From positions 42 through 64,041 of the forward strand of contig CAZINI010000010.1 of NCBI GenBank assembly GCA_964540575.1: DNA of 64,000 nt. The letters are read 5' to 3'. Each line of letters opens with the position of its first letter. The stretch's first letter is position 1. Position numbers and translations under genes: made by a program. Below are positions 10,573 through 61,700 of the stretch, in pieces. The notes beneath the pieces are model-generated. The model searched no databases. It was not told the DNA's origin and saw only the letters and a program-made list of their open reading frames with translations. The DNA comes from an uncultured Ruminococcus sp. Its GTDB lineage: Bacteria > Bacillota > Clostridia > Oscillospirales > Ruminococcaceae.

Positions 10573-11145
10573 TTATTCCCCATTGGGGAATGTTTTTTTT
10601 CTTCTGTCATAGTTGATTTTATATGATAGTGCATCTTCTGAATATTCAATATCTTCTGGGCAAATTGATATGTAGTCAATTTTATTTAGCTTATAGAGAT
10701 TTTCTTTTTCTTTCCTATATTTTAAGTATTCTTCATCATTTAAACCCCAATACTCAATATATAAATTTCTGCTTGGTATGTAAAAATCGGGTATTTTATA
10801 CACTAATAATCCACTTTCAGTATAAAGCGGCAAAATTGGTTCATAAGCGTGCAAATACGAGTTGTGATAAAGCCAATTATCAATTTTCTGCTCCTTTTCC
10901 GATCTAACATAATGACCATCTTCACATCTGAATTTCAGAGGAGTCTTCATATTTTTACGATAAGCATTGTTAAAGTCAACCGGCTCTAACATACAAGAAC
11001 AGCCTTCTGCAACAATGTAAAATTTTTTGCAATATTCGCATTGCTTGATTTGACCTTCATTTTTTTTAGTATTACAATTTCTGCATAATTGATATTTGTC
11101 CCCACAAGTATCACCGCAGATTTGACATTTTTTTGTTATTTCCAT
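10573..11145 (-). CDS. zinc-ribbon protein with a PD-(D/E)xK-like nuclease-fold C-terminal domain (tentative)
   Basis: 190-aa ORF. N-terminal CxxC clusters (CQICGDTC, CRNC, CEYC), then ...SEKEQKIDNWL...YEP...IPDFYIP...LYIEYWG, which resembles the small nuclease-like domain seen at helicase IV-type N-termini. The C-terminal FPNGE is encoded by a palindrome copy. Confidence 0.4.
   Translation of the reverse strand: MEITKKCQICGDTCGDKYQLCRNCNTKKNEGQIKQCEYCKKFYIVAEGCSCMLEPVDFNNAYRKNMKTPLKFRCEDGHYVRSEKEQKIDNWLYHNSYLHAYEPILPLYTESGLLVYKIPDFYIPSRNLYIEYWGLNDEEYLKYRKEKENLYKLNKIDYISICPEDIEYSEDALSYKINYDRRKKTFPNGE
10575..10591. repeat. palindrome copy P1 (ATTCCCC-ATT-GGGGAAT)
   Basis: Read directly. Lies 8 nt upstream (minus-strand sense) of the int GTG/RBS and forms the last codons of ORF 10573-11145. 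Confidence 0.9.
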
Positions 11146-11210
11146 TTTTCTCTTCCCCTGTATGATAAATTTTAAATAATGAGTATTCTTGACTTAATGC
11201 GTTTTTGTCA

Positions 11211-11555
11211 TTATGATACATCTTCTTTTTCCTCTGGTGGATAGTTGTTGTATAGCATTTCCATTCGCTCTAGTATTCTGCCTTGATCCCTTGGTTTTAA
11301 TTTTGAGAATTTTTCCAAGCATTCTTGTTCATCAAGACTAAGGGATGTCGCACTTCTTTCTTTTCCTGTGCATAAGTATTCTATTGACACACCCAAAAAA
11401 TCCGCAATTACGGATAAATTTTCAGCAGCAGGGTTTGTTCCTTTTTTCTTCCAATCAGATACGGCAGATGAAGATATGCCAGTTTGTATAGCTAAATCTT
11501 TTTGCTTAAGACTCTTTTCTTTTAATAAAAGAAAAATTCGTTGTGAAATTGTCAT
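11211..11555 (-). CDS. XRE-family HTH repressor (cI-like)
   Basis: 114-aa ORF with an HTH_3 signature (LKEKSLKQKDLAIQTGISSSAVSDWKKKGTNP). Divergent from the BRO operon. Confidence 0.85.
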   Translation of the reverse strand: MTISQRIFLLLKEKSLKQKDLAIQTGISSSAVSDWKKKGTNPAAENLSVIADFLGVSIEYLCTGKERSATSLSLDEQECLEKFSKLKPRDQGRILERMEMLYNNYPPEEKEDVS

Positions 11556-12825: not shown

Positions 12826-12972
12826 TCCTCACCTTTTAGGGGGGGAATTGCTCCTCACCTTTGGGGGAAATTACTCCTCACCTTTTTGGAAATTACTCCT
12901 CACCTTTAGAGGAAATTGCTCCTCACCTTTTCGGGATTAATCCTCACCTTTGAGAAATTGCTCCTCACCTTT
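12826..12972 (+). repeat. iteron array (7 direct repeats), probable oriV
   Basis: TCCTCACCTTT at 12826, 12852, 12875, 12897, 12920, 12941 and 12962 (spacing 21-26 bp), most preceded by ATT(G/A)C. An AT-rich stretch (12990-13070) follows, then the Rep gene. Confidence 0.8.
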
Positions 12973-13112
12973 AAGTCTGTAAAGCCTTATTCTATTAGGG
13001 TTCGCAGGCTCGGTAAACAAGCTTATAACAAGTATATAAATATGTTATATAAACAAGCAATCTAACATTTGACGGTTTGACTGTTGGTTTTCATCAGAAA
13101 AGAAGTGAAAAA

Positions 13113-14135
13113 ATGTCTGAAAAAAAGGAATACGTTATTGAGATGTCACACAGGCTCAATTTGATGCGGAGTGAAAAATTCTGTACTAATGAGCTGAAAG
13201 TATTGGATAAATACTTATCAAGAATAAATCCACGTGATAAGAGTACCCGGAAAGTAATCTTTACTCTCAAGGAGTTTCAGAAGGATCTGGGAATAACCGA
13301 TCTGAGATATAAAACTCTCAGAACTAATGTAGAAGCTCTTCTCGGAAGATGTGTGTTTCTTCCGAATGCTAATACGGGTGAATTTATTGGCTTCCAGCTT
13401 TTTAAGGAAGTTGAGTTGAAAAAAGATGATGTAAAGGGTTGGATCGTTACTCTTGATTGCCACGACAGAGCTGTCGATTTGTTTTTTGATATTGCAAAGG
13501 ACGGTTATTTCATCAGAAAGCTGAAATATAGTATGCGTCTTAACTCTGCAAATCAGATAAAGTTCTATATGCTGATGAAGGAATATGAAGGACTCGGCAA
13601 AAAGACGATAAAGCTTGCAGAGCTTATCGATTGGCTCAAGGTAAATCCTGATATGCCGTGGAAATATTTTAAGCGTGACGTAGTCGATATTTGTCAAAAA
13701 GCATTGTCTGAGCTTACGGACGTAACTTTCACATATGAGTGTAAACGATGTGGGCATTCATACGAATACATTACCTTTTTCATAAAGCCGAACCATCAGG
13801 AACAACTAATGTTTGATGATTATGAAGAAAACGAGGAATATCAAACAAAAGTCGAAAATGATGAACAGGAAAAAGAAAATACATACAGCAATGAAAAAAT
13901 TGAATTTCTTGCCGATGCCTGCGATAATTACTTTTCGGAAGATGAAATGCAAATCATTTACAGTATCATAGCTAGGAAGATACCAAGCCATAAAGATGAT
14001 TTAGCAAGATATGATTACCTGCTTCTTAAATACAAGGAGCTAAAACACAGAATTTCCCGAACAGATTTGCCGCCATTAAAATCAAAGTTCAATTACTTCA
14101 AATTTATGCTTGAAAATGATGTTAAGGAGGATTGA
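13113..14135 (+). CDS. rep: plasmid-type replication initiator (Rep_3/RepB-like, tentative family)
   Basis: About 340-aa ORF directly downstream of the iterons. The N-terminus resembles winged-helix initiators (IEMSHRLNLMRSEKFCTNELKVLDKYLSRI). ATG 13113 preferred over the track start 13077. Confidence 0.65.
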   Translation: MSEKKEYVIEMSHRLNLMRSEKFCTNELKVLDKYLSRINPRDKSTRKVIFTLKEFQKDLGITDLRYKTLRTNVEALLGRCVFLPNANTGEFIGFQLFKEVELKKDDVKGWIVTLDCHDRAVDLFFDIAKDGYFIRKLKYSMRLNSANQIKFYMLMKEYEGLGKKTIKLAELIDWLKVNPDMPWKYFKRDVVDICQKALSELTDVTFTYECKRCGHSYEYITFFIKPNHQEQLMFDDYEENEEYQTKVENDEQEKENTYSNEKIEFLADACDNYFSEDEMQIIYSIIARKIPSHKDDLARYDYLLLKYKELKHRISRTDLPPLKSKFNYFKFMLENDVKED

Positions 14136-16266: not shown

Positions 16267-16275
16267 GGTAGGAAT

Positions 16276-20607: not shown

Positions 20608-20862
20608 ATGAAACAGAAGTATATTGATAGGCTTATTAGCGGCAGGACAGCAGGCGAGGACTTTATGTATTTTCTTCGCAAGCTCCCCGATGAGCTTGAT
20701 GTTTATTTGGCTTTGCAGGATATATTTGATAATACGGAGGAAAATGGAGCGGATTGGGCAACTAGGCAGTTCCAGCAGATCGCTAAACAGTATCTGAGTG
20801 ATGATGCGGAATTTATGAGGTTGATTAATGAAGATGAAAAGAATAGCTCTGCACGACAGTGA
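20608..20862 (+). CDS. hypothetical protein
   Basis: 84-aa ORF behind GAAGGGAA. Confidence 0.45.
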   Translation: MKQKYIDRLISGRTAGEDFMYFLRKLPDELDVYLALQDIFDNTEENGADWATRQFQQIAKQYLSDDAEFMRLINEDEKNSSARQ

Positions 20863-21799
20863 ACAGGAATACATATCACATAAAACTTTTCCGAATTATG
20901 CGTTGATGAAAATATCCGCATATCATAAATCGCAAGGAGATACCGTTGAATGGTGGCTGCCGTTATTGCAATATGACATAGTGTATTCCAGCAAGATATT
21001 CGATTTCACTCCCGAAAATCCCTATTTGCCGCCTGATACTATAAAAGGCGGGACGGGCTATGATGTACACTCTGTTCTCCCGCCGGAAATAGATGATATG
21101 TTTCCCGATTACAGCATTTATCCCGAATGTGATTATGCGATAGGATTTATAACAAGAGGTTGTCCGAACAAATGCCGATGGTGTGTCGTTCCCGAAAAAG
21201 AGGGTAATATAAAGCCTTATAGGGAATGGCGGCAGCTTATACGATCCGACAGCGACAAGCTGGTACTTATGGATAACAATATTCTTGCAAGCGACTTCGG
21301 CATAGCACAGCTTGAGAATATGATTGGCAGCGGATATAAAATCGACCTGAATCAGGGAATGGACGCACGTCTTGTGACCGATGAAATAGCGGAGATACTG
21401 TCAAAGCTTTCTTGGATAAGGCATATTCGCTTTAGCTGTGACAGTATTCCTCAGATAGATGCTATTATTTCGGCAGCGGAAAAGCTTATGAAATATGGAG
21501 TCCGTCCTTACAGGCTGTTTGTTTATCTGCTTGTCACAAAGGATATTGATAATGCTGCATATCGTGTTGAGCAATTAAAAAGGCTTACGGGCATTAATAT
21601 CTATGCTCAGGCGGAGCGGAACACAAGAATGAATATCATTCCAAATGCAGAACAGCTTGAATTTGCTCAAAGATATGTTTACAGCGGGCGTTTCAGGCAG
21701 GAAACTTGGTATGAATACCGGGAAAGGATTTTTATAAAGAAATTCCCCAGTGGGGAAATCATAAGGAGTGGTCAGTATGACAATAAAAGAATTCTGTGA
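20828..21799 (+). CDS. radical SAM enzyme (unassigned subfamily)
   Basis: 323-aa ORF with a CxxxCxxC cluster (GCPNKCRWCVVPE). The last 20 aa (KKFPSGEIIRSGQYDNKRIL) read through palindrome P2 and overlap the next gene. Confidence 0.7.
   Translation: MKMKRIALHDSEQEYISHKTFPNYALMKISAYHKSQGDTVEWWLPLLQYDIVYSSKIFDFTPENPYLPPDTIKGGTGYDVHSVLPPEIDDMFPDYSIYPECDYAIGFITRGCPNKCRWCVVPEKEGNIKPYREWRQLIRSDSDKLVLMDNNILASDFGIAQLENMIGSGYKIDLNQGMDARLVTDEIAEILSKLSWIRHIRFSCDSIPQIDAIISAAEKLMKYGVRPYRLFVYLLVTKDIDNAAYRVEQLKRLTGINIYAQAERNTRMNIIPNAEQLEFAQRYVYSGRFRQETWYEYRERIFIKKFPSGEIIRSGQYDNKRIL
21741..21759. repeat. palindrome copy P2 (AATTCCCC-AGT-GGGGAAAT)
   Basis: Read directly. 17-nt gap to ATG 21777; lies inside the 3' tail of the radical SAM ORF. 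Confidence 0.9.
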
Positions 21800-23086: not shown

Positions 23087-23105
23087 AATTCCCCACCGGG
23101 GAATT
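23087..23105. repeat. palindrome copy P3 (AATTCCCC-ACC-GGGGAATT)
   Basis: Read directly. 5 nt after the stop at 23081 and a 16-nt gap to ATG 23122. Confidence 0.95.
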
Positions 23106-24004: not shown

Positions 24005-24021
24005 AATTCCCCACCGGGGAA
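24005..24021. repeat. palindrome copy P4 (AATTCCCC-ACC-GGGGAA)
   Basis: Read directly. 9 nt after the stop at 23995 and a 19-nt gap to ATG 24041. Confidence 0.95.
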
Positions 24022-25096: not shown

Positions 25097-25858
25097 ATGG
25101 CTTTTTTGGAAAAGTTTGACTTGCTTGACGATGATTTGAAATTACAGTATAATTCCCCGGTGGGGAATTGCAATGCCGAGAATGGAGGTACGAAAAAGAT
25201 GAAAGAACACAATGATTATTTTACGGAAGAAAAGTACAAAGAGATGTATGAATTGGCAAACAAGAGGGTAGATGGGCTTCGTGCTATGGCTGAGAATATT
25301 ATCTCGGGTGATAAAAAAATAATAGTTGATATAAAGACTACAAATTGGATGTTTAGCGGGACAGTTGCACCTAAAGCCGAGCTCCTGTGGCTGACGATAA
25401 TTGATACCGACGGAAATGTGCTGTATGACAGTGCATTGGCACCACATGAATATGAATTTAATCAGGATTTCAGGAGATTATCCAAAAGAACAGGAATAGA
25501 TTTTGACCGGCTGTCAAGTGCTCCGACGTTGAGAAATCAGCTCTATAAGATAAATGAGATACTACTTTCTGCAAAAGCTATTATAGGATACTCTGTTGGG
25601 AAGATTATGGGGTATCTCAGACAGTCGGGCTGTGTGTGGCGTTCCGATTGTGAGCTTGGTAGTCTGGATAAAGCGTTTGAGGATACTATCGCCGAAATTA
25701 CAGATAAAAGAAATGCCACACTTGAAGAATGTGCGGCATTTTGGGAATATGAATGGCAGAATGAAGGAACCGAACACAGTACACTTGATAACTGCCGTGC
25801 GATCCTGCATTGCTATAACAGAATGATCGAGGAGAGATTTGAACTTGACGACTATTGA
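25097..25858 (+). CDS. DEDD-exonuclease-like protein with degenerate catalytic motifs (start uncertain)
   Basis: Same fold pattern as 19679-20593, but Exo I reads VDIKTTNW (E replaced by K), Exo II reads GYSVGKIMGYL (no Asp), and Exo III reads EHSTLDNCRAI. An alternative start at ATG 25199 behind GGAGGT would put palindrome P5 in the 5' UTR. Confidence 0.5.
   Translation: MAFLEKFDLLDDDLKLQYNSPVGNCNAENGGTKKMKEHNDYFTEEKYKEMYELANKRVDGLRAMAENIISGDKKIIVDIKTTNWMFSGTVAPKAELLWLTIIDTDGNVLYDSALAPHEYEFNQDFRRLSKRTGIDFDRLSSAPTLRNQLYKINEILLSAKAIIGYSVGKIMGYLRQSGCVWRSDCELGSLDKAFEDTIAEITDKRNATLEECAAFWEYEWQNEGTEHSTLDNCRAILHCYNRMIEERFELDDY
25151..25169. repeat. palindrome copy P5 (AATTCCCC-GGT-GGGGAATT)
   Basis: Read directly. 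Translated as NSPVGN if the CDS starts at 25097. Confidence 0.95.
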
Positions 25859-26116: not shown

Positions 26117-26230
26117 CTATCAACAGTATATCACATATTTTATACTGTTGATAGTGACATTGTGTACAAACTTGCTGTTAAAAGTTTGTTTATATTTACT
26201 ATTGCAAAATACTGTTGACAGTAGTATAAT
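26117..26230. promoter_or_regulatory. operator inverted repeat plus consensus promoter
   Basis: CTATCAACAGTATA (26117-26130) and TATACTGTTGATAG (26141-26154) are perfect inverted repeats. A third half-site ATACTGTTGACAG (26209-26221) lies between TTGCAA (26202-26207) and TATAAT (26225-26230), which have a 17-nt spacer. Confidence 0.6.
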
Positions 26231-26254: not shown

Positions 26255-26272
26255 ATTCCCCGATGGGGAATT
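26255..26272. repeat. palindrome copy P6 (ATTCCCC-GAT-GGGGAATT)
   Basis: Read directly. Sits in the 5' leader between the promoter at 26202-26230 and ATG 26299. Confidence 0.95.
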
Positions 26273-27455: not shown

Positions 27456-28257
27456 ATGTCAAAAATAATCGCAATAGCAAATCAGAAGGGCGGAGTAGGA
27501 AAGACAACCACCGCCGTAAATCTCGGCACAGCTCTGGAGCTTTCCGGCAGCAAGGTTCTGCTTATCGACCTTGACCCGCAGGCGAATATGTCTGCATATC
27601 TCGGATACGAGGACGATGGGAAGGCTACTATGAGCGACCTTGTAATGACCACAGCAAATAATTTTACTATGGGTGCTCAGAAGCGGACTATGCCCGCTAT
27701 GGACGAATGTATCCGTTACAGCGAAACAAACAAGGTGCATTTTATCCCATCGGACATAGGGCTTGCATATGCAGATGCTTGTATGATGCAGGCAGCAACA
27801 CGGGAGAGTGTACTGAAATTCATCCTGTCAGACAAGGCTGTGCAGGAATATGATTATATAATCATCGATTGTCTGCCATCTCTCGGAATACTGCTCATCA
27901 ATGCCCTAACTGCCGCAGACGGCGTTATCATTCCCGTTCAAACGCAGAAGTTTGCTCTTGACGGATTGGATATGCTCAGTGAGATATATTCACAGGTCAA
28001 GAATACAATAAACAGCAGGATTGATATTGTGGGTGTGCTCGCTACAATGGCGGATAATACAAATATCAGCAGGACAGTCATTGAAAAGCTCACTGACCGT
28101 TACGGCGAGAAAATGTTCGGGACATGCATACATACATAAGTCGGTGGAAGCTGCCAACAGCTCGGAGCGTATGAAATCGCTGTGCCTTAATAAGACAAAG
28201 CTGGGAGAGGAATACAAGGCTCTTGCCGCAGAGGTTAGCAAACGAATGAAGAAATAA
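27456..28257 (+). pseudogene. parA: ParA/Soj-family partition ATPase interrupted by a 1-nt frameshift
   Basis: Deviant Walker A (IANQKGGVGKTTTAVNLG) and DLDPQ. The frame ends FGTCIHT* at 28139, while the missing conserved C-terminus (KSVEAANSSERMKSL...YKALAAEV) continues in the +1 frame to 28257. Deleting one base near 28137 restores a normal ParA. Confidence 0.75.
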
Positions 28258-28274
28258 TTCCCCGGTGGGGAATT
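28256..28274. repeat. palindrome copy P7 (AATTCCCC-GGT-GGGGAATT)
   Basis: Read directly. Overlaps the stop of the parA C-terminal frame, with a 17-nt gap to ATG 28292. Confidence 0.95.
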
Positions 28275-28291: not shown

Positions 28292-29257
28292 ATGAATTTC
28301 GATATAAACAGTATGCTCTCTGCTGCTCCGGCAGCATCGGGAACAACGGCGGTACAGGAACTTCCCGTTGATATGCTTGTACCTTACGGCAGTCACCCGT
28401 TTACGCTTTACACAGGCGAACGTCTGGACGATATGGTGCAGAGCGTCAAGCAGAACGGCATCCTTACGCCTATTCTCGTCCGTGAGCTGGACGGCAGATA
28501 TGAGATTTTGGCGGGACACAACCGTACAAATGCTGCCAAGCTTGCAGGGCTTACAACTGTCCCTGCTATCGTGAAATCAAATCTCAGCGATGAAGAAGCC
28601 GATATGTATGTTATTGAAACCAATCTTATGCAGAGAGGTCTTAAAGAACTGAAAATATCCGAACAGGCAGCGGTAGTTGCTCTCCGTCATTCCAAAATGT
28701 TCGACGAGGATAAGCTTAATGCGATCCGTGAGGAGTTGTCCTCCATTGAAATGGGTACGGAAGAAGTCAAGCAGGACAGCAAGCTTGCAAGGGTAGGTGA
28801 GGAGTATGGGCTGTCGAAGAATACCATAGCACGGCTTATCCGTGTGAATAAGCTACTCACCGCCTGCGATAAATACCGAACAGCGGTAGACACAACGAAG
28901 TTGTCTGTCAGAGCAGCAGTTGAACTGTCATATATCCCATCATCTGCACTTGAAGTGATATTTGAGAGATATAAGGACAGTATTGTCGTTGATGATCTCT
29001 GGGTTGACTCGGTAAAGATCGACCTGAAGCTTGCAGAGCAGCTGAGAGAGCTTTTCAAGAATTTCAGCGGTGGAAAAATGTCTGCGGAGCTTGTCCTTGA
29101 TACTATGCAGAAATGCAGTGCACCGAGAAAGCCCAAAGCCAGAAAACTCAATTCCGATATTTACAGCAAATATTTCGATGAAGATGAAAGCGATGATTAT
29201 GTCAATAGCATAATCGATGAAGCTCTTAAACTGTATTTTCAGAACGAAAAAGATTAA
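28292..29257 (+). CDS. parB: ParB N-terminal-domain (ParB/Srx) protein
   Basis: ILTPILVRELDGRYEILAGHNRTNAAKLAGLTTVPAIV is the ParB-N fold, with GHNR in place of the GERR box. ATG 28292 behind GGAGGAAAA is preferred to the GTG at 28265, which lies inside the palindrome. Confidence 0.7.
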   Translation: MNFDINSMLSAAPAASGTTAVQELPVDMLVPYGSHPFTLYTGERLDDMVQSVKQNGILTPILVRELDGRYEILAGHNRTNAAKLAGLTTVPAIVKSNLSDEEADMYVIETNLMQRGLKELKISEQAAVVALRHSKMFDEDKLNAIREELSSIEMGTEEVKQDSKLARVGEEYGLSKNTIARLIRVNKLLTACDKYRTAVDTTKLSVRAAVELSYIPSSALEVIFERYKDSIVVDDLWVDSVKIDLKLAEQLRELFKNFSGGKMSAELVLDTMQKCSAPRKPKARKLNSDIYSKYFDEDESDDYVNSIIDEALKLYFQNEKD

Positions 29258-29270: not shown

Positions 29271-29299
29271 TTGACATTTTCGTACTTATATGATATAAT
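29271..29299 (+). promoter_or_regulatory. consensus sigma-A promoter
   Basis: TTGACA (29271-29276), 17 nt, TATAAT (29294-29299). Confidence 0.6.
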
Positions 29300-41207: not shown

Positions 41208-43742
41208 ATGGCTCATCCTGATAAGAAGAAATATGTTTTGCAAACCGACAGAGCGGCTTACACTCAGAAAAAATATACCGTTAAGCGGACAAAAACACAA
41301 AATTCCCCACCGGGGAATTTTACGAAAGGCACGATAGGCGGAGATATTCCCAAAGGGCAGGGCGATACGAAAAAAAGCGGTACATTACTTAAGAAGATAT
41401 TTAAGGAAAACAGCGATAAGAAAGAAGCTTCGGAACAGACTCAGCATAAAAAAGCCGCATATATCCAAGATAATATTCAGAATGATGCGGCTGCTTCATA
41501 TGCGGAGCAGTATAGTGATACCGCTTTGGAAGAGTCTGTTTCACCGAAAGAAGAGCAGGATCTCTCCACGGGAAAGACGGAAGAAAAGCCGATACATAAT
41601 GCAAAATCGGACAGCATTGTTCCCAATAAAAATGACATATCCTCCGATAAAGCGGAGCAGATGAAAAGGGCGGCATTTATCAAAGCAAAGCTGCAAAAGA
41701 ACATTGCAGCAGCACAGATGAAAAGCACATATTACGAACAAAACGAAGAAGCTTGCGACAGGGTACATTCAGCTTCAAAGAGTAAGGACAATACTCCTTC
41801 ATATGTTGCGTCAAAAATGGAGGGCGTAACAAATGAGAATGCAGCTTCCACCGAAAGACGTTATCTCGGAAACAGCGAAAGCATTTCCGAAAACAAGCAT
41901 AAAAACAGCCTTGATAATGCCGAGGTAAAAAAAGCATATAAGACAAAAATACTCGGAGAACAGCTGAACAGGCGGAGAGCCGCTGCGGATATGTACAGTC
42001 AGGCTAAGACCAATGCTGCCCTTATTTCAGCCGAAAAGGCAAAAGCAGCTGCAATGAAAAATGCGGAAGCAGATGCCAATGTGAGAGATAATGTTATTCC
42101 CGGTGTTGAAAAGGCGGCAGAATATATGTCTGCTGCCAAAGACGGTGATACAGCTAAAATCTTGTCCAAGTCTGCAAAGGATATTCTTAGAAAGCATTTG
42201 AGTGATGGTACAAACCAATTTCTTGATAAAGCCGGTATAGTATCGGGTGCAGTAAAAGAAAGCGATTCTGTCGGCGGAGCAGTGGCAAATGTAGGTGTTT
42301 CGCTGGCAGCAAACGCTATAAAGCAATCTGTAAGCTCTGCATTGAAAAAACCGCTTACAGATAAAAAAATAGAGGAACGGCTTGAAAAAAAGTTCCACTA
42401 TATAGACCGCAAAACCGATAAGCAAATGAGTCGCATCCAAGCTGAAAAACGTGAAGCTATGAACGGGAATATCAGCAAAAGCCTTGAAAAGAAGCTTGAC
42501 AAGATAGAGCGTAATCAAGAAAGATACAAGGAGAAACTCGCAAAACAGCAACAAGAATTACAGCGTAGGCAGCAGAAAAACATTTACATAAAGCACAACA
42601 GAAAAAATCCTGTTTTTGTCGGTGGGAGAGAAAAAGGCGGGACTTTAAGAAAGCTTGTAGGTAAAAAGAGCAGCCTATTGCTTATGGGAGGGGTTGCACC
42701 GATAATAATCATTATTGTGGTCATTGTATTGTTTTTGGCAGTGATTGGATCTGTGTTTGCTCCGATTGGATGGCTAAAAGGATTTCATCATTCCGATGAT
42801 GCACTTAATGACAGCGAAGAACACGAAGTAATGTGCGTTGAATATATGAAATTCAAAAAGCTTGTTACCGATAAAATCAGGGAAATAAACACAGAGATAA
42901 CCTTAGCCTGCGAAAAGGAAATGCAGTTTTATGAAAGTTCCAACGGAAGTGTTAGTGTTACAGCCAGCCCGTTTATTGTTGCGACCGAAAAATTCTGGGA
43001 ATATGATGATGATGATCGCAAACATATAACCGGAGCGTACATTCCATACAAAGGTTCGCATCCAAGCGAATGGAGCAGGAGTGCATATGAAACAATTGAA
43101 TATACAGACGTGAATGGTAACGAAAGAATTATTCCTCTTAAGCTTGCGATCGATGATTTTGATTTTGCCGAATTTTGTGTAAATTTCCAAGTGTGGTCGA
43201 TAAAATCAAAGTATCCCGATGACGATGTGCAGAACCATTCGGGTGAAATTTTCACCTTGAAAGTCGGCAAAATGACAGAGTTTTTCAACCGCACTATAGT
43301 ATGGAATAAGGGTATGTATCCCTTGTATACATATGCAAGAGATATTACGGCAGATGACTATAAAGGTGATGATGAAGCGGCTGAAAATGCTGTTATTGAT
43401 ACATTTAGGGACGTCGGTTATCACGCTTTAACACTCAACTGCCGCTGCATGAATTATCATTACGATAATTGCAAAGGTCATCAGGTCAAATTTTATAATC
43501 TCAATGTAGTACCGTTCGAGGATATATTGGAGGAGGACGGGCTTGAATTGAGCGAAAATGACAGGAAGTTTATAGAGGAGCTTACAAAATCAATGCAAAT
43601 ACTTGACAGTGAGATAGTTCCCGAAGTTATGGCAACCTATACGGGGACGTACTTCGATGAGCCTGAAGAAACGGAGGAGTCGGAAGAGTCGGAAACAACG
43701 GTTAGTTCAGCGGATACAGAGCCAACAGAAACAGGAGGATAA
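41208..43742 (+). CDS. large membrane-anchored T4SS-associated protein (CD1108-like position; no hydrolase motif seen)
   Basis: 844-aa ORF. K/A-rich low-complexity N-terminal half, one TM (VAPIIIIIVVIVLFLAVIGSVF), Cys-containing C-terminal domain, acidic tail. Contains palindrome P8 in frame. Confidence 0.5.
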   Translation: MAHPDKKKYVLQTDRAAYTQKKYTVKRTKTQNSPPGNFTKGTIGGDIPKGQGDTKKSGTLLKKIFKENSDKKEASEQTQHKKAAYIQDNIQNDAAASYAEQYSDTALEESVSPKEEQDLSTGKTEEKPIHNAKSDSIVPNKNDISSDKAEQMKRAAFIKAKLQKNIAAAQMKSTYYEQNEEACDRVHSASKSKDNTPSYVASKMEGVTNENAASTERRYLGNSESISENKHKNSLDNAEVKKAYKTKILGEQLNRRRAAADMYSQAKTNAALISAEKAKAAAMKNAEADANVRDNVIPGVEKAAEYMSAAKDGDTAKILSKSAKDILRKHLSDGTNQFLDKAGIVSGAVKESDSVGGAVANVGVSLAANAIKQSVSSALKKPLTDKKIEERLEKKFHYIDRKTDKQMSRIQAEKREAMNGNISKSLEKKLDKIERNQERYKEKLAKQQQELQRRQQKNIYIKHNRKNPVFVGGREKGGTLRKLVGKKSSLLLMGGVAPIIIIIVVIVLFLAVIGSVFAPIGWLKGFHHSDDALNDSEEHEVMCVEYMKFKKLVTDKIREINTEITLACEKEMQFYESSNGSVSVTASPFIVATEKFWEYDDDDRKHITGAYIPYKGSHPSEWSRSAYETIEYTDVNGNERIIPLKLAIDDFDFAEFCVNFQVWSIKSKYPDDDVQNHSGEIFTLKVGKMTEFFNRTIVWNKGMYPLYTYARDITADDYKGDDEAAENAVIDTFRDVGYHALTLNCRCMNYHYDNCKGHQVKFYNLNVVPFEDILEEDGLELSENDRKFIEELTKSMQILDSEIVPEVMATYTGTYFDEPEETEESEESETTVSSADTEPTETGG
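41301..41319. repeat. palindrome copy P8 (AATTCCCC-ACC-GGGGAATT)
   Basis: Read directly. Translated as NSPPGN at residues about 32-37 of ORF 41208-43742. Confidence 0.95.
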
Positions 43743-44710: not shown

Positions 44711-47080
44711 ATGAAACTTATAATCAGTGAAAAGCCGTCCACCGCAAGAACGATAGCTCACGCAGTGGGTGCAAGAGAAAAGATTTACGGTGAGGGAAAA
44801 GAGTATTGCTATAAAGGCAATGACTTTTTCGTTGTAAATGCGAGGGGACACCTTTACGGGCTGGGAATGCCGCAGGACTATGGGTACAGCAAGACTTACA
44901 AAATGGACGAGCTGCCTATGTTCCCCGAATTTGAGCTTTACCCCGAAGGCGAAGATACGGAAAATCTCCGTAATCTCATTGCATCGCTTATAAACCGTCC
45001 CGATGTGGACGAGCTTATCTGTGCGACCGATGCGGGACGTGAGGGAGAGCTTATTTTCCGTCATATTTATAACGCCAACAAATGCACAAAGCCCGTAAAA
45101 CGTCTTTGGACAAACTCAATGACGGACGAAGCTATTACAAAATGTATGGCAAATCTCCCGCCCGACAGCGATTTTGACGGAGAATATTATGCCGCACTTG
45201 CAAGGGAAAAATCCGATTGGATAATCGGAATGAACCTGTCCCGTCTTTATGGTATAAAGGATAACTACACTCACCGTATCGGACGTGTAAAAACTCCCGT
45301 TCTTGCCCTTATCGTTGACCGTGACAACGAGATAGACAGATTTGAAAAGGTGACTACATATCGCCTTGAAATGGAAAACGGTGCGGTATCGGAACAGATA
45401 TATACCTCAAAGGAAGAAGCCGAAAATGCAAGGGATAAATGCAGCGGAAAAGCTGTAAGTGTGCTGTCGGCAGTAATCGATGAGAAGCATATAAACAGAC
45501 CGCTGCTTCACAGCTTGACAACTCTCCAACAGGAAGCAAATAAGGTGTATGGCTTGACTGCAAAGCAGACACTTGAAGCTGCTCAGAGCCTTTATGAGAA
45601 CAAGCTGACGACCTATCCCCGTACCGATTGCAATTACGTTTCCGAGGATATGAGAGAACAACTTATCCGTGTGGTAAGCTGCATCGGAGAACGTTCCGAA
45701 TATGCGGACAGAGTAAACGGGCTGAACGCTGTGGGGCTTAATCTTGACGGCAGAGTTATAAACGACAAGGCAATGAGCGGTCACGATCATCACGCCATTA
45801 TCCCCGAAGCAAGCACAGCAAGCCTTGACAGCCTTTCCGACACGGAACGCAAGGTATACGGTCTTATCGTAAACCGACTGCTTTGTATTGCAGATAAACA
45901 GTATAGCTTCACCGAAACCAACTATACATTCTTTTGCGAAGATATTACATTCAATCTGAAAAAAGAAGTAACAAAAGAAATGGGCTGGAAGCAGTATGAT
46001 ACCGAACTTAAAAAATCGGAAAATTCCCCGGTGGGGAAAAATTCCCCGATGGGGAATTATGTAGAAGGAGAAACTTTCACAGCGGATAACATTTCCGTCA
46101 AGGAATGTGTTACCAAACCGCCCAAGCATTACACAGACGCAAGTTTGCTGTCGGTTATGAACAATATCGACAACAGAATAGACGATAAAGAACTGAAAGC
46201 AGCTGTAAGCGGCAAAGGCATTGGTACCGAAGCTACCAGAGCTGACATTATTGAGCAGCTAATTGCCGCAAAATATGCAGAGCGTAAGGATAAAAACATT
46301 ATTGCCACGGAATTTGGCAGAACCTTTATCGCTTCTATCCCCGATAACGTAAAATCTGTTGAGCGTACTGCGGAATGGGAACAGGTTTTTACCAACATAA
46401 AGGAAAAGGGCATTTCAGCCGAGCCTTTTATGGAAGATATAAAGGAATTTGTCCGTTCTGTCATTTGCTTTGAAAACAGCCCCACACGGCAGAGAACACC
46501 CGTTAATGTTCCCGAAGGCGGCAGTCAGCAGAGAACGGCAATAGGTATTTGCCCCCGATGCGGAAAGAATATTTACGAGGGTAAAATGAATTTCTACTGT
46601 GAAAGCGGCAAGGACGGCTGTGGCTTTACCTTGTGGAAGGAACCTAAATTTTTCAAGGACGTTATTTCTCCCGAAAAGGCTGAAAAGCTCATTGAGGGAA
46701 AAACGGTATCTTTAAAGGCTGAGAGCAAGGACGGAAAAATATATTCTGCCGACTACAAATTGAATGATACGGGAAAGTATGTAAATCTTGAACGTATCAA
46801 GACGGAAAAAGAAGTCATCGGAAAATGTCCGAGGTGCGGAAAGAATGTTTACGAGGGCAAGTTGAATTTCTACTGTGAAAGCGGAAAGGACGGCTGCGGT
46901 TTTGCGATTTGGAAGGAGGACAAGTACAACGGTATAACCGTTACCGCACAGAACGCAAAGGAACTGCTTGAGGGCAAGAGTATTGTCAAGACAAAAAAGA
47001 AATTATCGGGAGAAAACGTTCGTGAGCGTTACAAACTGAAGGATACGGGTAAATATATAAATCTTGAAAAGGAGCAGTAA
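44711..47080 (+). CDS. topB: DNA topoisomerase III with two C-terminal zinc-ribbon repeats
   Basis: Toprim N-terminus (MKLIISEKPS...), DAGREGELIFRH, TTYPRTDC active-site Tyr context, and two copies of CPRCGKN(I/V)YEGK(M/L)NFYCESGKDGCGF. Carries the tandem palindrome in frame. Confidence 0.9.
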   Translation: MKLIISEKPSTARTIAHAVGAREKIYGEGKEYCYKGNDFFVVNARGHLYGLGMPQDYGYSKTYKMDELPMFPEFELYPEGEDTENLRNLIASLINRPDVDELICATDAGREGELIFRHIYNANKCTKPVKRLWTNSMTDEAITKCMANLPPDSDFDGEYYAALAREKSDWIIGMNLSRLYGIKDNYTHRIGRVKTPVLALIVDRDNEIDRFEKVTTYRLEMENGAVSEQIYTSKEEAENARDKCSGKAVSVLSAVIDEKHINRPLLHSLTTLQQEANKVYGLTAKQTLEAAQSLYENKLTTYPRTDCNYVSEDMREQLIRVVSCIGERSEYADRVNGLNAVGLNLDGRVINDKAMSGHDHHAIIPEASTASLDSLSDTERKVYGLIVNRLLCIADKQYSFTETNYTFFCEDITFNLKKEVTKEMGWKQYDTELKKSENSPVGKNSPMGNYVEGETFTADNISVKECVTKPPKHYTDASLLSVMNNIDNRIDDKELKAAVSGKGIGTEATRADIIEQLIAAKYAERKDKNIIATEFGRTFIASIPDNVKSVERTAEWEQVFTNIKEKGISAEPFMEDIKEFVRSVICFENSPTRQRTPVNVPEGGSQQRTAIGICPRCGKNIYEGKMNFYCESGKDGCGFTLWKEPKFFKDVISPEKAEKLIEGKTVSLKAESKDGKIYSADYKLNDTGKYVNLERIKTEKEVIGKCPRCGKNVYEGKLNFYCESGKDGCGFAIWKEDKYNGITVTAQNAKELLEGKSIVKTKKKLSGENVRERYKLKDTGKYINLEKEQ
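46022..46058. repeat. palindrome copy P9 (tandem: AATTCCCC-GGT-GGGGAA + AATTCCCC-GAT-GGGGAATT)
   Basis: Read directly. In frame in topB as NSPVGKNSPMGN. The 43-nt block 46019-46061 is identical to 59494-59536. Confidence 0.95.
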
Positions 47081-48804: not shown

Positions 48805-48823
48805 AATTCCCCGGTGGGGAATT
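48805..48823. repeat. palindrome copy P10 (AATTCCCC-GGT-GGGGAATT)
   Basis: Read directly. Begins immediately after the stop at 48804, with an 18-nt gap to ATG 48842. Confidence 0.95.
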
Positions 48824-50728: not shown

Positions 50729-50732
50729 GAAT

Positions 50733-50768
50733 AATTCCCCGGTGGGGAATTTTTCCCCGTTGGAAATT
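50733..50768. repeat. palindrome copy P11 (perfect AATTCCCC-GGT-GGGGAATT plus a degenerate second unit TTCCCC-GTT-GGAAATT)
   Basis: Read directly. 4 nt after the stop at 50728; the degenerate unit ends 16 nt before TTG 50785. Confidence 0.9.
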
Positions 50769-50784
50769 GAAAGGACTGATTGTT

Positions 50785-55700: not shown

Positions 55701-58700
55701 TGCACTTCTGGAGAGAAGCTATCCTTCGGTTGAAAATTACCTGATAAATGTAGTAAGTGACAGCAAGAACAGGGAAGATATGGCAGAGGACAGAGAAGCT
55801 GCACTAAAGGCTTTGCAGACCATTGAAGTGTTTAAGATTGGAATGGAAGAATTTCGTCCTATACATTTTGAACCTGTTGAGGAAACAAGCTATGCAGAGC
55901 AGCTTTATACAAGAGTAAATGACGAATACAGCTATTTTATCGGTCAGATAAAAAATGAAAGCCCTGATGTGCTTGTTCGTTCGGCTGCGGAAATAGCGGA
56001 TAAGGAAAAGATTACACAGTATATTATGGAGGGGACTGTTTCTCTTTTAGATAAACAGTATGAAGCTTTGCTGTCAAGACCAAATCCGCTTGATGAAATT
56101 TATGAGCAGTGGGTGCAAAACGGCGAACTGAGCAGCTTTGAAGATGTTGGTATCGCACTTGAAGAAGCAGCCGACCGTATTCTTGTTTCCCTTGACCGTG
56201 AAAACTCACGTTCCGAGGAAAAGGTCAATGCCGTACTTGCAGTTTCGCAGAATGATACTAGCAGATATTATGCTGCAAATAATGTTTCCGTTGATGATGT
56301 GAGAGAAGTTATTAAACACTCAGATATGCTGTTTATCGACCTTTGTGCACTTGGTGAAAAGCAGATAACGGAAGCTCAGTTTGCGGAGTATTCACAGAGA
56401 AACGGTGTTACTGCTGTTGATGTGGATATTGACGAGCAGACTATGCACGTTTACGGTGCGGATAAGCCTATTATTTCATTTGATGAAATAAAGGTGGATT
56501 TTGATGAAATAGCAAAGGCACTTGACCTTAAAAACAACACTATTACATTTTCTGTTGTTGCCATTGAAGGAGAAAAGCCCTTTATTATTGGCAGTTATAT
56601 CGACAAGGACGATATTACCGCACTCGAAGAATATCAGGATTATATCTATGATACGGGAAGAAAGAATATTGATGTTACCGTTGATTATTATACGATAGGT
56701 ATGGGAGATAATGAGTCGTATGGTGCCGATACCGATGAAAGGGACTATATTTTCGAACACCTTGATGAAGTGCTGAAATATAAATATACCGATCACCTTG
56801 AATCGGAAACATATTTTATTGCGACTCCCGCAGAACTGCTGGAAGAAATCAGCGGCGAAGCAGAAGAAAAGAACTATTTATTCACTGTTGCAGAATTTGA
56901 GGACGGCAGCAGATATGTTATCCCCGGTAAAATCGATGATAATAACATTAAGGAAACGGCAGCTTGGACGGAAGTTAAGAACAACAATTTTGACGTTGAC
57001 CGTATTACAGATCTTGACGAAGATATACGGGTGACATATACGGTATATCAGACAGGCAGCGGAGAAACCGTTTTGCCGACAGACGAGGAAACAGCAAGGA
57101 TCGAAGCTGCTCTTGATGAAATCTTATCCGATGCGGTTATGGTGACTTCTTTTGATTCATCTGTACGTCCTTGGGAAGATGTTGATGATGTCATTTTCAA
57201 AATGGAAGAAGTATGGAAAGAACGTCACGCAAAGGAAATGAATGTTTCCGATGGTTTTGACAACAGTAATTTCCTTTATCCCAATAATCTGATGAAAATC
57301 GCACACGACAGCGAGGGAAAAGACCATTATAATTTCGACGACGATGCTATCTTGCAGATAAAGCTTGCAGGAAGTGAATGGCTGCACCCTGTTGACGCTG
57401 CTGTTGAAATGAACCGCAGAGGTGTTGACATTAATGACATTGAAATGCTAAATGTGCGATATGTTTCCTCCGATGGTACTGTCGGAGAAAAGGATGTAAC
57501 TCCCGAACAATATATAGTTTACCTTGCTCACAGCGAAGAACGAACAAATGCTTTTCTGGCTGCGGTCGATGCAGCAGAGGAGCGGAAAAAGGTTCCCGAA
57601 GCAATGATGAATATCATTTATGATGATATGCCGTCATTTGTCAAGAGTGCTGTTGCTTGGGACGAGCTTATGGAATATGACGGTATATCGGAACAATTTG
57701 ATAAGGGTGAAGATCCCGTTGCGGTGGTAAAGCCTTATCTTGCAAATAATGGCACATTCTCTTGGAACGCAGATGAGCTGAAAAACGGATATTTTGATTG
57801 GTCTGTAAAGGATAATGGTGATACGGCAGATATTTCAATTTCCGTAAATGACAGCGACACGTTCAGAGAGAAGTATAATTCTCATTTTGAAGTGCCTTGG
57901 ACTGAACTTGCAGACGCATTTAAAAAGCGAATAGATCAGGAGATAAACTACAATAAAATCTCTGACGGAACGATTACTGTAACTGCCGTAGGTGAGGATA
58001 GGTTCAGATTTGTTGACAGAAGCAGAAATACGGAAGCGATTGAAAGCCGTGAACAGTTGATTGAACGTTTTACAGAAATGTTCAATAAAGCTGATTTGAA
58101 CGGTATCATTAGGTCTGTTATTGAGGAAGCTAAATTTGAAAAGATTGAAGTTGATAATAATTCCCCGGTGGGGAATTTGGACGGCGATGAGGAAAAGCAG
58201 ATAATTGACCTTTCCAAACTTTCAAAAATCACTCTTAATGATGAATATGAACGTGGAACGGATCAGCCCGATGATTTCCAATACATAAAAAATACTATCA
58301 CATTCAGCGACCTTAATTCGTCATTTCTTATACGCAGAAACAAGGAATTTACATATGACTATGATGTTCTGCCCGACCTTGACGAGGGTGATACATTCAT
58401 CACAAGACAGGGTATGCTAAAAGAAGTGCGGGATTTTCTGGAAGCAGCAAAAAGCGATTCGGATAAATCCATTTCCATTACCGATATGAACGGTAATACT
58501 ACTGTTCTGAAAGGCAGTCAATACGTCTTTGAAGCAACAGAGGACAGGCTTGCATTTATGATACCCGAGGTTGGCTATGCGGAAATGTTTGAACGTGATG
58601 ATGACAGCTATGATTACACGATTTATGACAGCGATTTCAAAGTTACAGACAGCGGAGTTTACGATGACGTAAGCATTACTCTACGTCAGGCATTTACTAT

Positions 58701-61700
58701 TATTTTAGAAGATGCAGGGTATGATATTGACAGATGCGAGCCTATGGATTTTGAAGAACTGCACAGCCGAATAGATGAAAAGTCTGAAAAGGCTATCAAA
58801 AACGGAACGCACATTAGTCCCAAAGAAAGAGCCGAGCAGGATAATACGCCAAAATATGAGATATACCAGATACCCGCAGGCGAACGCTATCACGATATTC
58901 GCTTTACAAGCTATGACCTTTTGGAAAAATGGGGACAGCTGCCCGATCGTCTTAATTATGAAAAGGTGTACAGCGGCAGGCTTGATGATATTGAATATGA
59001 TAATAAGCCGGAGGGCATATTCATCAAATTCAATACCGAACGTCCCGAAGATTTTGCGGGGCATTCTCTGAGCACTTCCGACGTTATTGTTATCGAGGAC
59101 GAAAAGGGTAAATCTGCGTATTTCGTTGACGATGTTGGATTTAGGGACATTACAGATATTTTCCTTGAACTTGACCGTGCACAGAACAAACCTCTTGAGG
59201 AGGAAAATTCCATAGAAAATGAAGCGGAGTACTTAAATACTGTCGAATTAGAATGGAAGGCATTGCCCGAATCTATTGACGAAGAAACAGGCAAGCCATC
59301 AATTTGGTCAACTGAGATAAATTCCGAAAGATATGGGAGATATTTATGGATAAGTAAGAATGAAAATAATACATATGATGTCGAGTATGATGCAGGCGAC
59401 AGAATTATTCCCGTATCATCGGAAAGTATCGGATTTTATTCATTGTCTGCTGCCAAAGATTGGGTTGATTATGAATTAGCTGACCCCGAAAAAGAAAATT
59501 CCCCGGTGGGGAAAAATTCCCCGATGGGGAATTATGAAAACGCCAATAGCTATGAACCGAAAATCGGTGACTTTATCGAGTATCAGGATAAACTTTTTAA
59601 AGTTGCAGACGTTGGCAGCGGAACTGTTACCTTGCAGACCGCAGACACTCTTATCCCCGAAACAACGGTGGTATCTGTTACCGACCTTATTACAAGCGAC
59701 AGTCTGACCGTTATCGAGGAAAACGGAAAGCCTGCTCACATTACGCAAACAGTAGCCGAGCAGCCTGCCGAGAATAATCCAAAATCACGGAATTTTGTTA
59801 TCACAGACGAGAATTTTGGTGTTTCGGGCGGTGCAAAAACGAGATATGCGGACAATGTTGCAGCTATTAAAACGTTGAAAGCGATCGAAGCGGAAAACCG
59901 CACGGCTACCCCCGAAGAACAGCAGATATTGTCAAAATACACGGGCTGGGGAGCAATACCGCAGGCATTTGACATTAACAATGACAAGTGGCGTACAGAG
60001 TATGCGGAACTCCGCACTTTGCTCACACCCGAAGAATACGCTGCTGCCAGAAGGTCAACGATGAACGCACACTACACCTCTCCCACAGTTATTTCGGCAA
60101 TTTATGAGGGACTGAAAAATCTCGGATTTGAAGGTGGAAAAATCCTTGAGCCTGCTGTCGGAATAGGAAACTTTTTTGGAGCAATGCCCGAGGAAATGCG
60201 TAACAGCAAGCTGTTCGGCGTTGAGCTGGACAGTCTTACGGGACGTATTGCACAGCAGCTTTATCCCGAAGCTGATATTCAGATAAAGGGCTTTGAGCAG
60301 ACAGCATTTGCGGACAACAGCTTTGATGTTGCTATCGGCAATGTGCCTTTTGGCGATTACAAGCTGAATGACCGCCGATACAATGAAAACAATTTCCTGA
60401 TTCACGACTACTTTTTCGCAAAGGCTTTGGACAAAGTTCACCCCGGCGGCGTTGTTGCATTTGTGACTTCAAAGGGTACGCTTGACAAGGAAAATCCCGA
60501 AGTCAGAAAGTACATTGCACAGAGAGCGGAACTGCTGGGTGCAATACGTCTGCCTAACAATGCTTTCAAGGCAAATGCAGGCACGGAAGTTACTTCCGAC
60601 ATAATCTTTTTGCAGAAGAGAGAACGTCCGATTGAAATCAATCCCGATGAGGTGGAATGGCTGAAAAAGGCTGAAACTCCCGATGGTTTTTCCGTGAATA
60701 ATTACTTTGTGCAGCACCCTGAAATGGTGCTTGGCACAATTGCAGAAGCGAAGCATATTTACGAACCGACCGAAAACACTCAGGTACTTCCAATTGAGGG
60801 AGCAGACCTTAAACAGCAGCTTTCGGAAGCAATGAGGAATATTCAAGGAAAGTATAGAGCTTCGGAAAAAGAAACAGCTCTTCAGAATGTGGACGAAATC
60901 CCAGCTCCGGCTAATTCCCGAAAGTACAGTTTTTATGCTGTTGACGGAAATCTCTATTACAGAGAAGCCGGGGACACTATGAAAAAGGTGAACGTGTCGA
61001 AAGATACACTTAGCCGTGCGATAGGTATGATAGAGCTTCGTGATAATGTTCGTGAACTGCTTGATTTACAGCTGAATAATGCGGACGGCAGTCTTGACTT
61101 TGATATTTCCGAAAGCAGAAAAAAGCTGAATAATGCCTATGACAGCTTTGTTGCTAAGTATGGCAATGTAAGCGATAAGAAAAATGCAAAGGCAATGCAG
61201 GGCGATGACGGCTACAATATCGTTTCTGCTCTTGAAGTTAAGGACGAAAAGGGCAATGTTACGGGCAAAGCGGACATTTTTACTCAGAACACCGTAAAGC
61301 CTAAAATCATTGCGACACACGTTGATACTGCCGAGGAAGCACTTATTCTATCTGTTGCCGAAAAAGCAAAGGTGGATTTTGAGTATATGACAGAACTTTG
61401 CGGTATGGATAAAAATACTCTTATTTCCGAATTGTCGGGACAGATATACCGTCTGCCGCAGGAAAAAGAAAAATATGTGACCGCAGACGAGTATCTTACG
61501 GGAAATATCCGCAAGAAGCTCCGTGAGCTGGAGAATGTACCCGAGGGTATGGACGTTTCCGAGAACAGAAAGGCACTTGAAGCGGCTATGCCACCGAGAG
61601 TTGAAGCAAAGGATATTTCCGTAAAGCTGGGTGCACATTGGATAGACCCTAAATATATCGAGGATTTCATAAAAGAAAAATTCAATCCCGATTATGATAC

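Follow-up and report, generated by a model that had tools for sequence, protein, structure and literature searches.

The window analysed here is a 64,000-nucleotide stretch of contig CAZINI010000010.1 from an uncultured Ruminococcus sp. Profile scans with Pfam and NCBIfam place an integrative conjugative element at ~9.4 to 63 kb of this window, and a short palindrome, TTCCCC-N3-GGGGAA, is dispersed over the element. This motif is real and its conservation is at the DNA level; it comes in lineage-exclusive variants and is both tied to the parB gene of the element and adjacent to promoters. With somewhat better than even confidence we read the copies as an array of parS sites or operators for the ParB-family protein of the element, resembling KorB and its operators (OB) on plasmid RK2.

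The front of the element carries genes for a tyrosine integrase, an XRE regulator (11211-11555), a Rep3 initiator (13077-14135) beside iterons, and a MobA/VirD2-type relaxase. The accessory array downstream of the relaxase gene encodes an exonuclease, a radical-SAM-like protein, two DUF4116 proteins and a GNAT protein. The par operon ends with parA and then parB, and further genes encode VirD4, VirB4, TopB, a GGDEF protein and a primase (50725-51996). The giant open reading frame (ORF) 52768-62949 encodes a 3393-aa polyvalent protein with LPD3, LPD18, DUF3848, LPD16, YodL, Eco57I-like methylase and ResIII/DEAD helicase domains. Seven iterons of ~22 bp (GGAAATTRCTCCTCACCTTT) at 12830-12975 lie upstream of the Rep3 gene, so the integrated element retains a plasmid-type replicon. 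Megablast of 24 kb of the element against the PLSDB plasmids gave no match, and neither did an Rfam search or a tRNA scan.

The palindrome and its placement on the element

The search pattern TTCCCCNNNGGGGAA has 15 exact matches at 13 loci between 10576 and 59531. Its chance expectation is 0.16 matches, with a maximum of 2 in 100 dinucleotide-preserving shuffles. The window holds no one-mismatch match beyond the 15 exact copies, and there is no copy in the chromosomal flank (1-9300) or after 59531, where the best matches have 3 mismatches. The density in the element is ~1 copy per 3.6 kb. These results agree with the first-pass annotation in the number of loci, in the absence from the flank and the window end, in both tandems and the degenerate neighbour of one copy, and in the central triplets (GGT in 7 copies and ACC in 3, GAT in 3, ATT and AGT in 1 each); its coordinates denote the same sites counted from the AATT flank. 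The description as a 19-bp perfect palindrome holds in part: the full AATT...AATT 19-mer is present in 9 of the 15 copies only, and strict palindromy is confined to sites with an A-N-T centre. The half-sites that it reported in the iterons at 12841-12873 did not stand, as these GGGGAATT strings belong to the iteron repeat and are probably unrelated to the motif. No description of the motif strings was found in the searchable literature.

The copies, each given with its central triplet where one was noted, lie as follows (RBS, ribosome-binding site).

10576..10590, copy 1, ATT: last five codons (FPNGE and stop) of the minus-strand ORF 10573-11145; 9 nt, which include the RBS AAGGAAG, lead to the GTG start of the downstream integrase gene 9454-10566
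21743..21757, copy 2, AGT: C-terminal tail of the radical-SAM-like ORF 20828-21799, read in frame as FPSGE; the ATG of a DUF4116 gene follows after ~19 nt
23089..23103, copy 3, ACC: stop codon before, RBS GGAGAGGAAGG after, next ATG at 18 nt
24007..24021, copy 4, ACC: from the stop of the GNAT gene to the RBS and start of the second DUF4116 gene
25153..25167, copy 5, GGT: flank overlapped by the -10 box of the promoter-like site 25125-25153 (TATAATTCCCC)
26256..26270, copy 6, GAT: par-operon leader; the -10 box of the promoter-like site 26202-26230 is 25 nt upstream, and the ATG at 26299 follows after 28 nt
28258..28272, copy 7, GGT: directly 3' of a stop codon, with the parB ATG (28292) 19 nt further
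41303..41317, copy 8, ACC: codons 32-37 of ORF 41208-43742, close to its N-terminus, read in frame as QNSPPGNF
46024..46056, copies 9 and 10, GGT and GAT: tandem with cores starting at 46024 and 46042 (18-nt period), in frame (NSPVGKNSPMGN) in a variable loop of the topoisomerase domain of TopB
48807..48821, copy 11, GGT: from the stop of ORF 48493-48804 to the RBS and ATG (48842) of the GGDEF gene
50735..50766, copy 12, GGT, with its degenerate neighbour at 50752 (3 mismatches): gap between the GGDEF and primase genes
58161..58175, copy 13, GGT: in frame (NNSPVGNL) in the giant polyvalent protein, in a linker between domains at ~aa 1798
59499..59531, copies 14 and 15: tandem with cores starting at 59499 and 59517 (18-nt period), in frame (NSPVGKNSPMGN) at ~aa 2244-2256 of the giant protein, with the YodL and methylase domains on either side

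Seven copies thus occupy gaps between a stop codon and an RBS (23089, 24007, 25153, 26256, 28258, 48807 and 50735). Two more lie at ORF ends and are also 9-19 nt before the next start (21743 and, on the minus strand, 10576), and six are in frame inside genes at four loci (41303, the TopB tandem, 58161 and the tandem at 59499). As a separate observation, the in-frame copies of the polyvalent gene lie between domains and have out-of-frame TAA codons just before them, like former gene junctions.

The shape of the site was derived from 104 non-redundant TTCCCC-class copies. Position 6 is A in 87% (otherwise G) and position 8 is T in 93% (otherwise C), the base between them is free, and the arms are flanked by AA (79-92%) and TT (62-76%). 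The full consensus is two-fold symmetric, AATTCCCC-A-N-T-GGGGAATT, with the relaxed formula AATTCCCC-R-N-Y-GGGGAATT, and the site is a 9-1-9 palindrome about one free base. Positions 6 and 8 are unable to pair over a loop of one nucleotide, and their conservation therefore points to half-sites that are read on duplex DNA. At the same par-leader site (~7626) of six related loci, the central base is A or T though these elements are 92-95% identical; either the centre evolves freely or the palindrome inverts.

A role of the hairpin in single-stranded DNA (ssDNA) during conjugation, as a priming or loading site for primase, single-stranded DNA-binding protein or the relaxosome, has some appeal from the gene content, since the element transfers as ssDNA and encodes a primase, a relaxase and TopB. 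Six copies are moreover clustered at 21.7-28.3 kb, in the accessory array downstream of the relaxase gene. The vicinity of the relaxase gene at 11-21 kb, the expected location of the origin of transfer, holds no copy, however, and the conservation of A and T around the centre speaks against a loop. The tie to parB and to promoters would also be left unexplained, and we consider such an ssDNA signal very unlikely.

Conservation of the site in related elements

Selection on the site acts on DNA. In the long ORFs of the window and its relatives, peptides of the form N-S-P-x-G-[NK] are encoded by the exact motif in 21 of 21 cases, always with the serine codon TCC (17% background usage) and the glycine codon GGG (10% background usage in the element). 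Some copies are read in another frame (EFPxGE), and others are intergenic. Rare fixed codons, a second reading frame and intergenic copies together show that selection acts on nucleotides. The first-pass annotation had left room for a peptide conserved through divergent nucleotides; this alternative failed, and a peptide-level motif (NSPxGN) is ruled out by codon usage. The DNA site in turn strongly constrains the coding sequence, as rare codons have become fixed in both TopB and the polyvalent gene.

Apart from chance-level singletons, the scans place the motif in a single family of elements. The 16-base pattern AATTCCCCNNNGGGGAATT gave 14 singleton matches against IMG/VR, which is the chance level, and a genome scan of 596 Gb gave at least 115 blocks. 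Among the matches listed from that scan, most are singletons from unrelated phyla with unrelated central triplets, 24 blocks come from metagenome-assembled genomes of gut or rumen Clostridia and are homologous to the window element, and genomes with several matches have nearly all of them in such homologous blocks. The 24 blocks encode relaxase, ParA, ParB, VirD4, VirB4, TopB and the polyvalent protein at 30-87% amino acid identity, and they contain 52 copies (at most one mismatch) in 156 kb, placed between genes and in frame as in the window. On this indirect evidence a host-wide repeat appears poorly supported, and the restriction to the element noted in the first-pass annotation is borne out by both the flank of 9.3 kb and the chance-level singletons elsewhere. 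One contig (JAEWWT010000002.1, 40001-48000) has an accessory array in which 7 copies (six exact, the other with a single mismatch) fall within 8 kb. These copies lie between genes for a single-stranded DNA-binding protein, a Macro-domain protein and a weak TnpB/Cas12f-like match, which resembles leading-region or anti-defence cargo.

Between elements of only 50-77% protein identity, copies keep their positions, for example in the gap between parA and parB, in the leader of the par operon, at the N-terminus of the gene that follows virB4 and in two of the linkers within the polyvalent protein. Copy 8 is also present in two orthologues of its gene and copy 13 in three. The TopB tandem is found at the same place in an 87%-identical orthologue, and more distant orthologues have no tandem or have copies elsewhere; at the position of the tandem at 59499, orthologues of the giant protein carry a single copy. 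A block of 43 nt, gaaaaTTCCCCGGTGGGGAAaaaTTCCCCGATGGGGAAttatg, is identical at 46019-46061 in TopB and at 59494-59536 in the polyvalent gene. This identical tandem block and the single copy in orthologues suggest ectopic gene conversion between copies 13 kb apart.

These traces of recombination bear on the idea of a selfish or recombinogenic mini-palindrome, either an in-frame-tolerated insertion element like the Rickettsia palindromic element (RPE) or the repetitive extragenic palindrome (REP), or a junction for cassette exchange and gene fusion. The 18-nt period of the tandems, the shared 43-nt block, the preference of each element for its own central triplet, and the out-of-frame TAA often preceding in-frame copies would all fit, as would several homology breakpoints between close relatives that fall 1-4 nt or less from a copy's 5' edge. 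For the majority of breakpoints, on the other hand, a copy is present on just one side or is absent from both. The clean indels that the first-pass annotation had proposed to look for did not turn up in TopB orthologues: copies are at different places, clean indels of 18 nt are absent, and the gap at two copies that arose is 0 or +1 aa. Target duplications were not observed either, and neither a REP-associated tyrosine transposase (RAYT) nor an integron-type integrase is among the scanned proteins, though no systematic search was made. Copies at orthologous sites in elements of 50-77% protein identity and the chance-level singletons outside the element family also count against the idea, which we hold to be distinctly improbable.

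Three narrower candidates were rejected. For REP/RAYT or RPE repeats, the 9.3-kb flank has none, TopB shows no clean indels and no RAYT was among the scanned proteins. Integron attC sites are imperfect, 57-141 bp long and carry R and L boxes, in contrast to a perfect palindrome of 15-19 bp; the only integrase here is a tyrosine recombinase at the end of the element, and differences in gene content are not bounded by copies on both sides. A cassette junction was dismissed since copy-edge breakpoints occur in some comparisons only and probably reflect one shared event.

Beyond the TTCCCC class, related elements carry other versions of the site. Metagenome contigs were scanned with an alignment of ParB homologues, 80 loci with a ParB identity of 37-71% were kept, and site classes were taken from de novo palindrome counts. 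The classes are TTCCCC-N3-GGGGAA, TTCGCC-N3-GGCGAA, TGCCCC-N3-GGGGCA (extended form ACTTCTGCCCC-AGT-GGGGCAGAAGT) and, in the remaining loci, palindromes of 25-27 bp of the form AACTT-xxxxxCC-ANT-GGxxxxx-AAGTT with 1-3 copies per 21 kb of the loci searched. Copies were counted as follows.

TTCCCC loci, 18 (250 kb): TTCCCC 62, TTCGCC 0, TGCCCC 0, GAAYCC 0
TTCGCC loci, 7 (79 kb): TTCCCC 0, TTCGCC 34, TGCCCC 0, GAAYCC 0
TGCCCC loci, 3 (48 kb): TTCCCC 0, TTCGCC 0, TGCCCC 6, GAAYCC 0
Remaining loci, 52 (641 kb): TTCCCC 0, TTCGCC 0, TGCCCC 0, GAAYCC 43

The TTCCCC site is thus absent from ~769 kb of loci of other classes. Changes between classes are mirrored on both arms, and within one element the arms are identical in every copy. 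Mirrored changes and identical arms are expected for a cognate trans-acting factor, but not for a generic structural hairpin. A more distant ParB relative has a different palindrome, AGGAATT-N-AATTCCT, at 3876, 4949, 8438 and 13804 of its own contig stretch (L208), each time directly 3' of a TAA, and the word CTTTGATACAAG is repeated inside paralogous genes of the same locus.

The ParB-family protein and its tie to the site

The two genes at the end of the par operon are the following.

27456..28139, plus strand: parA, Walker-type partition ATPase and ParB partner (AAA_31, E 4e-52)
28292..29257, plus strand: parB-family gene, with a ParB N-terminal domain, a disordered linker and a helix-turn-helix (HTH) with the recognition helix KNTIARLIRVNKL; proposed binder

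The N-terminal domain matches PF02195 (ParB_N) with E 1.2e-19 and TIGR00180 above its cut-off, and sequence matches in the PDB are Noc, Spo0J and ParB. In addition, phrog_4715 matches residues 20-231 (E 1e-39). An AlphaFold2 model has a predicted local distance difference test score (pLDDT) of 81.8, with helices at 170-172 and 176-191, and Foldseek aligns ~250 columns of it to ParB, Noc and KorB chains over the N-terminal and DNA-binding domains. On this model the window protein is predicted to have a ParB fold. Many ParB homologues have a Cys-rich N-terminal domain of ~190 aa (MQTYICKCG...), fused or encoded just upstream, and others have a C-terminal domain like that of the RNA polymerase alpha subunit (alpha-CTD, PF03118); the window ParB has neither.

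Several observations connect this protein to the site. ParA co-occurs with ParB in all 54 classified related loci, and within +/-10 kb of parB these two are the only window proteins with homologues in all site classes. In the loci examined, a cognate copy lies at parB itself, either directly upstream, at its 3' end (for example ...YFANGE-stop in locus L146) or inside the gene. In many lineages a palindrome of 25-27 bp is located ~485-500 nt into parB, where it codes for the disordered linker between the N-terminal domain and the HTH. The encoded peptide drifts (TLNPVGSKL, SDPVGMKS, TSGPLVQKY, TSVPMETKL), and symmetry is kept at 10-13 of 13 pairs with compensatory changes. Site class and HTH sequence are paired as listed here.

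[LI]S[KR]N[TS]xARL: site TTCCCC
[KG]KDSVARL and SKDTVARY: sites TTCGCC and TTCGCA
VSKGSVVRL: site GAAYCC
LGR[ST]TVVRL: site AGACCC
MSGRNVARL: site CGGACC
ISASSVARL: site TGTTCC

The pairing of TTCCCC with SKN[TS] includes three loci with a ParB that is only 44% identical overall. The residue that tells site classes apart is position 2 of the predicted recognition helix (176-191), where Asn, Asp, Gly and others occur. We take ParB (28292-29257) to be the probable binder, with about the same confidence as in the array itself.

A duplex operator array could also serve another dimeric regulator of the element, namely the XRE protein or one of the small par-operon proteins (26299-26625, 26746-27021 and 27023-27427). 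Symmetry, exclusive variants and promoter adjacency fit any dimeric DNA-binding protein, and our protein comparison covered +/-10 kb around parB. None of these candidates is detectably common to the site classes near parB, however, and the small proteins gave no Pfam, NCBIfam or PHROG match and have no recognisable DNA-binding domain. In many lineages the site is moreover inside parB and tracks the ParB recognition helix, which makes a different binder quite unlikely.

Promoters, gene starts and known systems

Three promoter-like sites were located near the copies or near parB.

25125..25153, plus strand: TTGACG-17-TATAAT, 11/12, with the -10 box overlapping the flank of copy 5
26202..26230, plus strand: par-operon promoter-like site with its own palindrome TACTGTTGACAGTA in the spacer
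29271..29299, plus strand: perfect TTGACA-17-TATAAT with TG (extended -10); the parB stop codon is 14 nt upstream, and the transfer genes follow

As the -10 box of the first of these enters its flank, copy 5 covers the predicted transcription start, and this transcript would not contain the full hairpin. The order of par promoter, 16-39 nt and site recurs in the TTCCCC, TTCGCC and TGCCCC classes. Relatives have copies 4-15 nt upstream of -35 boxes: after parB the distance is 4 nt in three loci and 11-15 nt in a fourth, and the window element has no copy there. Adjacent pairs of a strong sigma-70-like promoter and a copy number 35 over the whole family, with near-identical elements still counted, against ~11 by chance as estimated from density. 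For KorB, the distance from an operator to the promoter downstream of it is either 4-10 bp or between 45 and >1000 bp (PMC11790492).

An intercistronic RNA hairpin with a stem of 8-9 bp and a loop of 3 nt, placed 5' of the RBS for protection from exonucleases or for insulation of translation initiation, has to be weighed against these data. The stem is stable (25-mer, -11.2 kcal/mol). An RBS and a start codon come after about 83 of 140 copies, mostly at a distance of 17-21 nt, and the upstream stop is 0-6 nt before the copy; an RNA would also suit the breakpoints, which assign the copy to the gene downstream of it, and the bias of the central base on the sense strand. Structure alone would, however, allow different stems, while the arms are identical within each element and vary only between lineages. 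The conserved A and T around the single central base cannot pair, copies upstream of -35 boxes and under the -10/+1 region leave the full hairpin untranscribed, 25 copies are inside coding regions, and Rfam has no match. An RNA function of this kind appears improbable to us.

Terminator function is still harder to reconcile with the site. On the sense strand, an intrinsic-terminator test found only TT after the stem and no U-tract. On the minus strand, all six copies between 20.5 and 30 kb score as terminator-like, and they do so on this strand only. An antisense-only intrinsic terminator could be drawn from this, with the complement of the upstream A-run as a U-rich stretch behind the minus-strand stem, as the 8 upstream bases average 4.6 A and the 8 downstream bases 2.4 T. 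The A-run comes largely from TAA stops and from Asn and Lys codons, though, and a terminator would have no need of identical, lineage-exclusive stems. We regard the antisense terminator as most improbable, and as a secondary effect at best.

Returning to the ParB-bound array, we infer binding, nucleotide dependence, silencing and a role in partition along the following lines. A ParB dimer would bind the symmetric duplex site through its HTH, and the 13 loci would constitute a parS/operator array over the 53-kb conjugative element. Each site would load ParB onto DNA, possibly with nucleotide-dependent clamp spreading to adjacent DNA by analogy to ParB, Noc and KorB. Copies at promoters (25153, 26256 and, in relatives, 4 nt upstream of the -35 box of the transfer operon) could repress or tune transcription of the par, accessory and transfer operons, and the dispersed sites would extend ParB occupancy element-wide. 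Together with ParA, the array could provide centromeres for an excised form replicating through Rep3. Because the genes are tightly packed, copies would survive only where 15-19 fixed bases are tolerated, that is in stop-to-RBS gaps, disordered loops and interdomain linkers, and selection for the cognate protein, along with occasional gene conversion, would keep them similar. Out of the three roles offered in the first-pass annotation, the dispersed protein-binding site, for which it had named ParB, fits best with symmetry, the tie to parB, HTH covariation and exclusive variants; the RPE-like insertion and the plain RNA stem-loop do not.

Several points weigh against this proposal. The distance from site to start is very regular, with its mode at 17-21 nt, and homology breakpoints place the site with the downstream gene; together they hint at a role in gene expression, for which a simple shortage of space may be an incomplete explanation. 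On the sense strand AAT centres outnumber ATT centres 48 to 10, a bias that a symmetric dimer would not impose, although non-independent copies can explain it. Box II of the ParB protein reads GHNR and is invariant in 54 homologues, compared to the canonical GERR (GERRxRA), so that only the last arginine is kept; CTP (cytidine triphosphate)-clamp behaviour, nucleotide binding and hydrolysis are uncertain for this reason and cannot be assumed. The covariation of HTH and site is confounded by shared ancestry, and it might extend to any protein encoded at a distance of more than 10 kb from parB.

Regular spacing from site to start, breakpoints at copy edges, gene conversion and in-frame copies preceded by TAA would also be compatible with a pair of further readings. 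Either a ParB-type protein on sites immediately 5' of almost every RBS gates each gene in a stoperator-like manner, for element-wide silencing or insulation, or the stop-free palindrome is a junction for swaps of accessory genes and for fusions into giant proteins. This pair is, in our view, unlikely. Stoperators of cluster A mycobacteriophages, bound by the L5 gp71 repressor, are dozens of copies of one short site in the intergenic gaps of an entire mobile genome, which they are thought to silence by blocking transcription. They are asymmetric, 13 bp long, fixed in orientation to transcription and bound by a phage repressor, unlike the symmetric site of the element with its tie to a ParB-family protein. 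The repeats of REP, bacterial interspersed mosaic element (BIME) and RPE type are likewise short and palindromic, between genes (REP) or in frame (RPE). They are genome-wide, longer (RPE ~100-150 bp) and clean insertions, in contrast to a site of 15-19 bp in one family of conjugative elements, with no clean indels and with covariation with a DNA-binding protein.

Closer parallels exist among ParB systems. In Bacillota, chromosomal ParB (Spo0J) with parS and Noc with its binding site (NBS) have the same fold and domain order as the window protein and are its best sequence and structure matches, and their palindromic sites are several, scattered over the replicon and often inside coding sequence. 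Bacillus subtilis has one parS inside spo0J, to which we liken the site inside parB in the relatives, and the Noc site ATTTCCCGGGAAAT resembles the TTCCCC/GGGGAA arms. parS and NBS are of even length (8+8, 7+7), however, whereas the element sites run from 9-1-9 up to 13-1-13, and the element is mobile rather than chromosomal, with a far higher density of sites (~1/3.6 kb) and mutually exclusive classes. What is new is most likely a ParB/KorB/Noc-type array on conjugative elements of Clostridia, with unusually high copy number in this lineage and several specificity classes; the kind itself is known. The family offers a natural series of ParB/site specificity pairs (TTCCCC, TTCGCC, TGCCCC, GAAYCC, AGACCC and others), each with a recognition-helix variant, which makes the evolution of ParB specificity directly testable. 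The sites are also a sequence signature by which these abundant conjugative elements of gut Clostridia can be found and classified in metagenomes.

The KorB-OB system of RK2/RP4 (IncP-1) is alike in several respects. RK2 carries about a dozen OB copies on a roughly 60-kb element. To our knowledge, no other well-studied ParB doubles as a long-range silencer of a conjugative element. Both systems have a ParB-family protein beside a ParA partner on a conjugative replicon, and both have an odd-length palindrome with one central base (OB core TTTAGC-G-GCTAAA). In both, a -35 box follows some operators within a few bp, and other operators are distant from any promoter (PMC11790492). KorB serves partition and global repression, and the window ParB may do so as well. 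If ParB binding is true, the element is a Gram-positive, integrative counterpart of the KorB-OB network. Differences are the Gram-positive host (Clostridia) and the integrative lifestyle, a marginal sequence identity (E 7e-6, N-terminal domain only) with box II GHNR instead of GERR, and the many copies in stop-RBS gaps or in frame inside genes. Profile scans found no KorA homologue, although the separate palindrome in the spacer of the par promoter hints at a partner. This palindrome, TACTGTTGACAGTA, occupies 26210-26223, with a near-copy at 26144-26155, and relatives have other lineage-specific palindromes in the same promoter spacer. By analogy to KorA, it may be a second, promoter-specific operator for a partner repressor.

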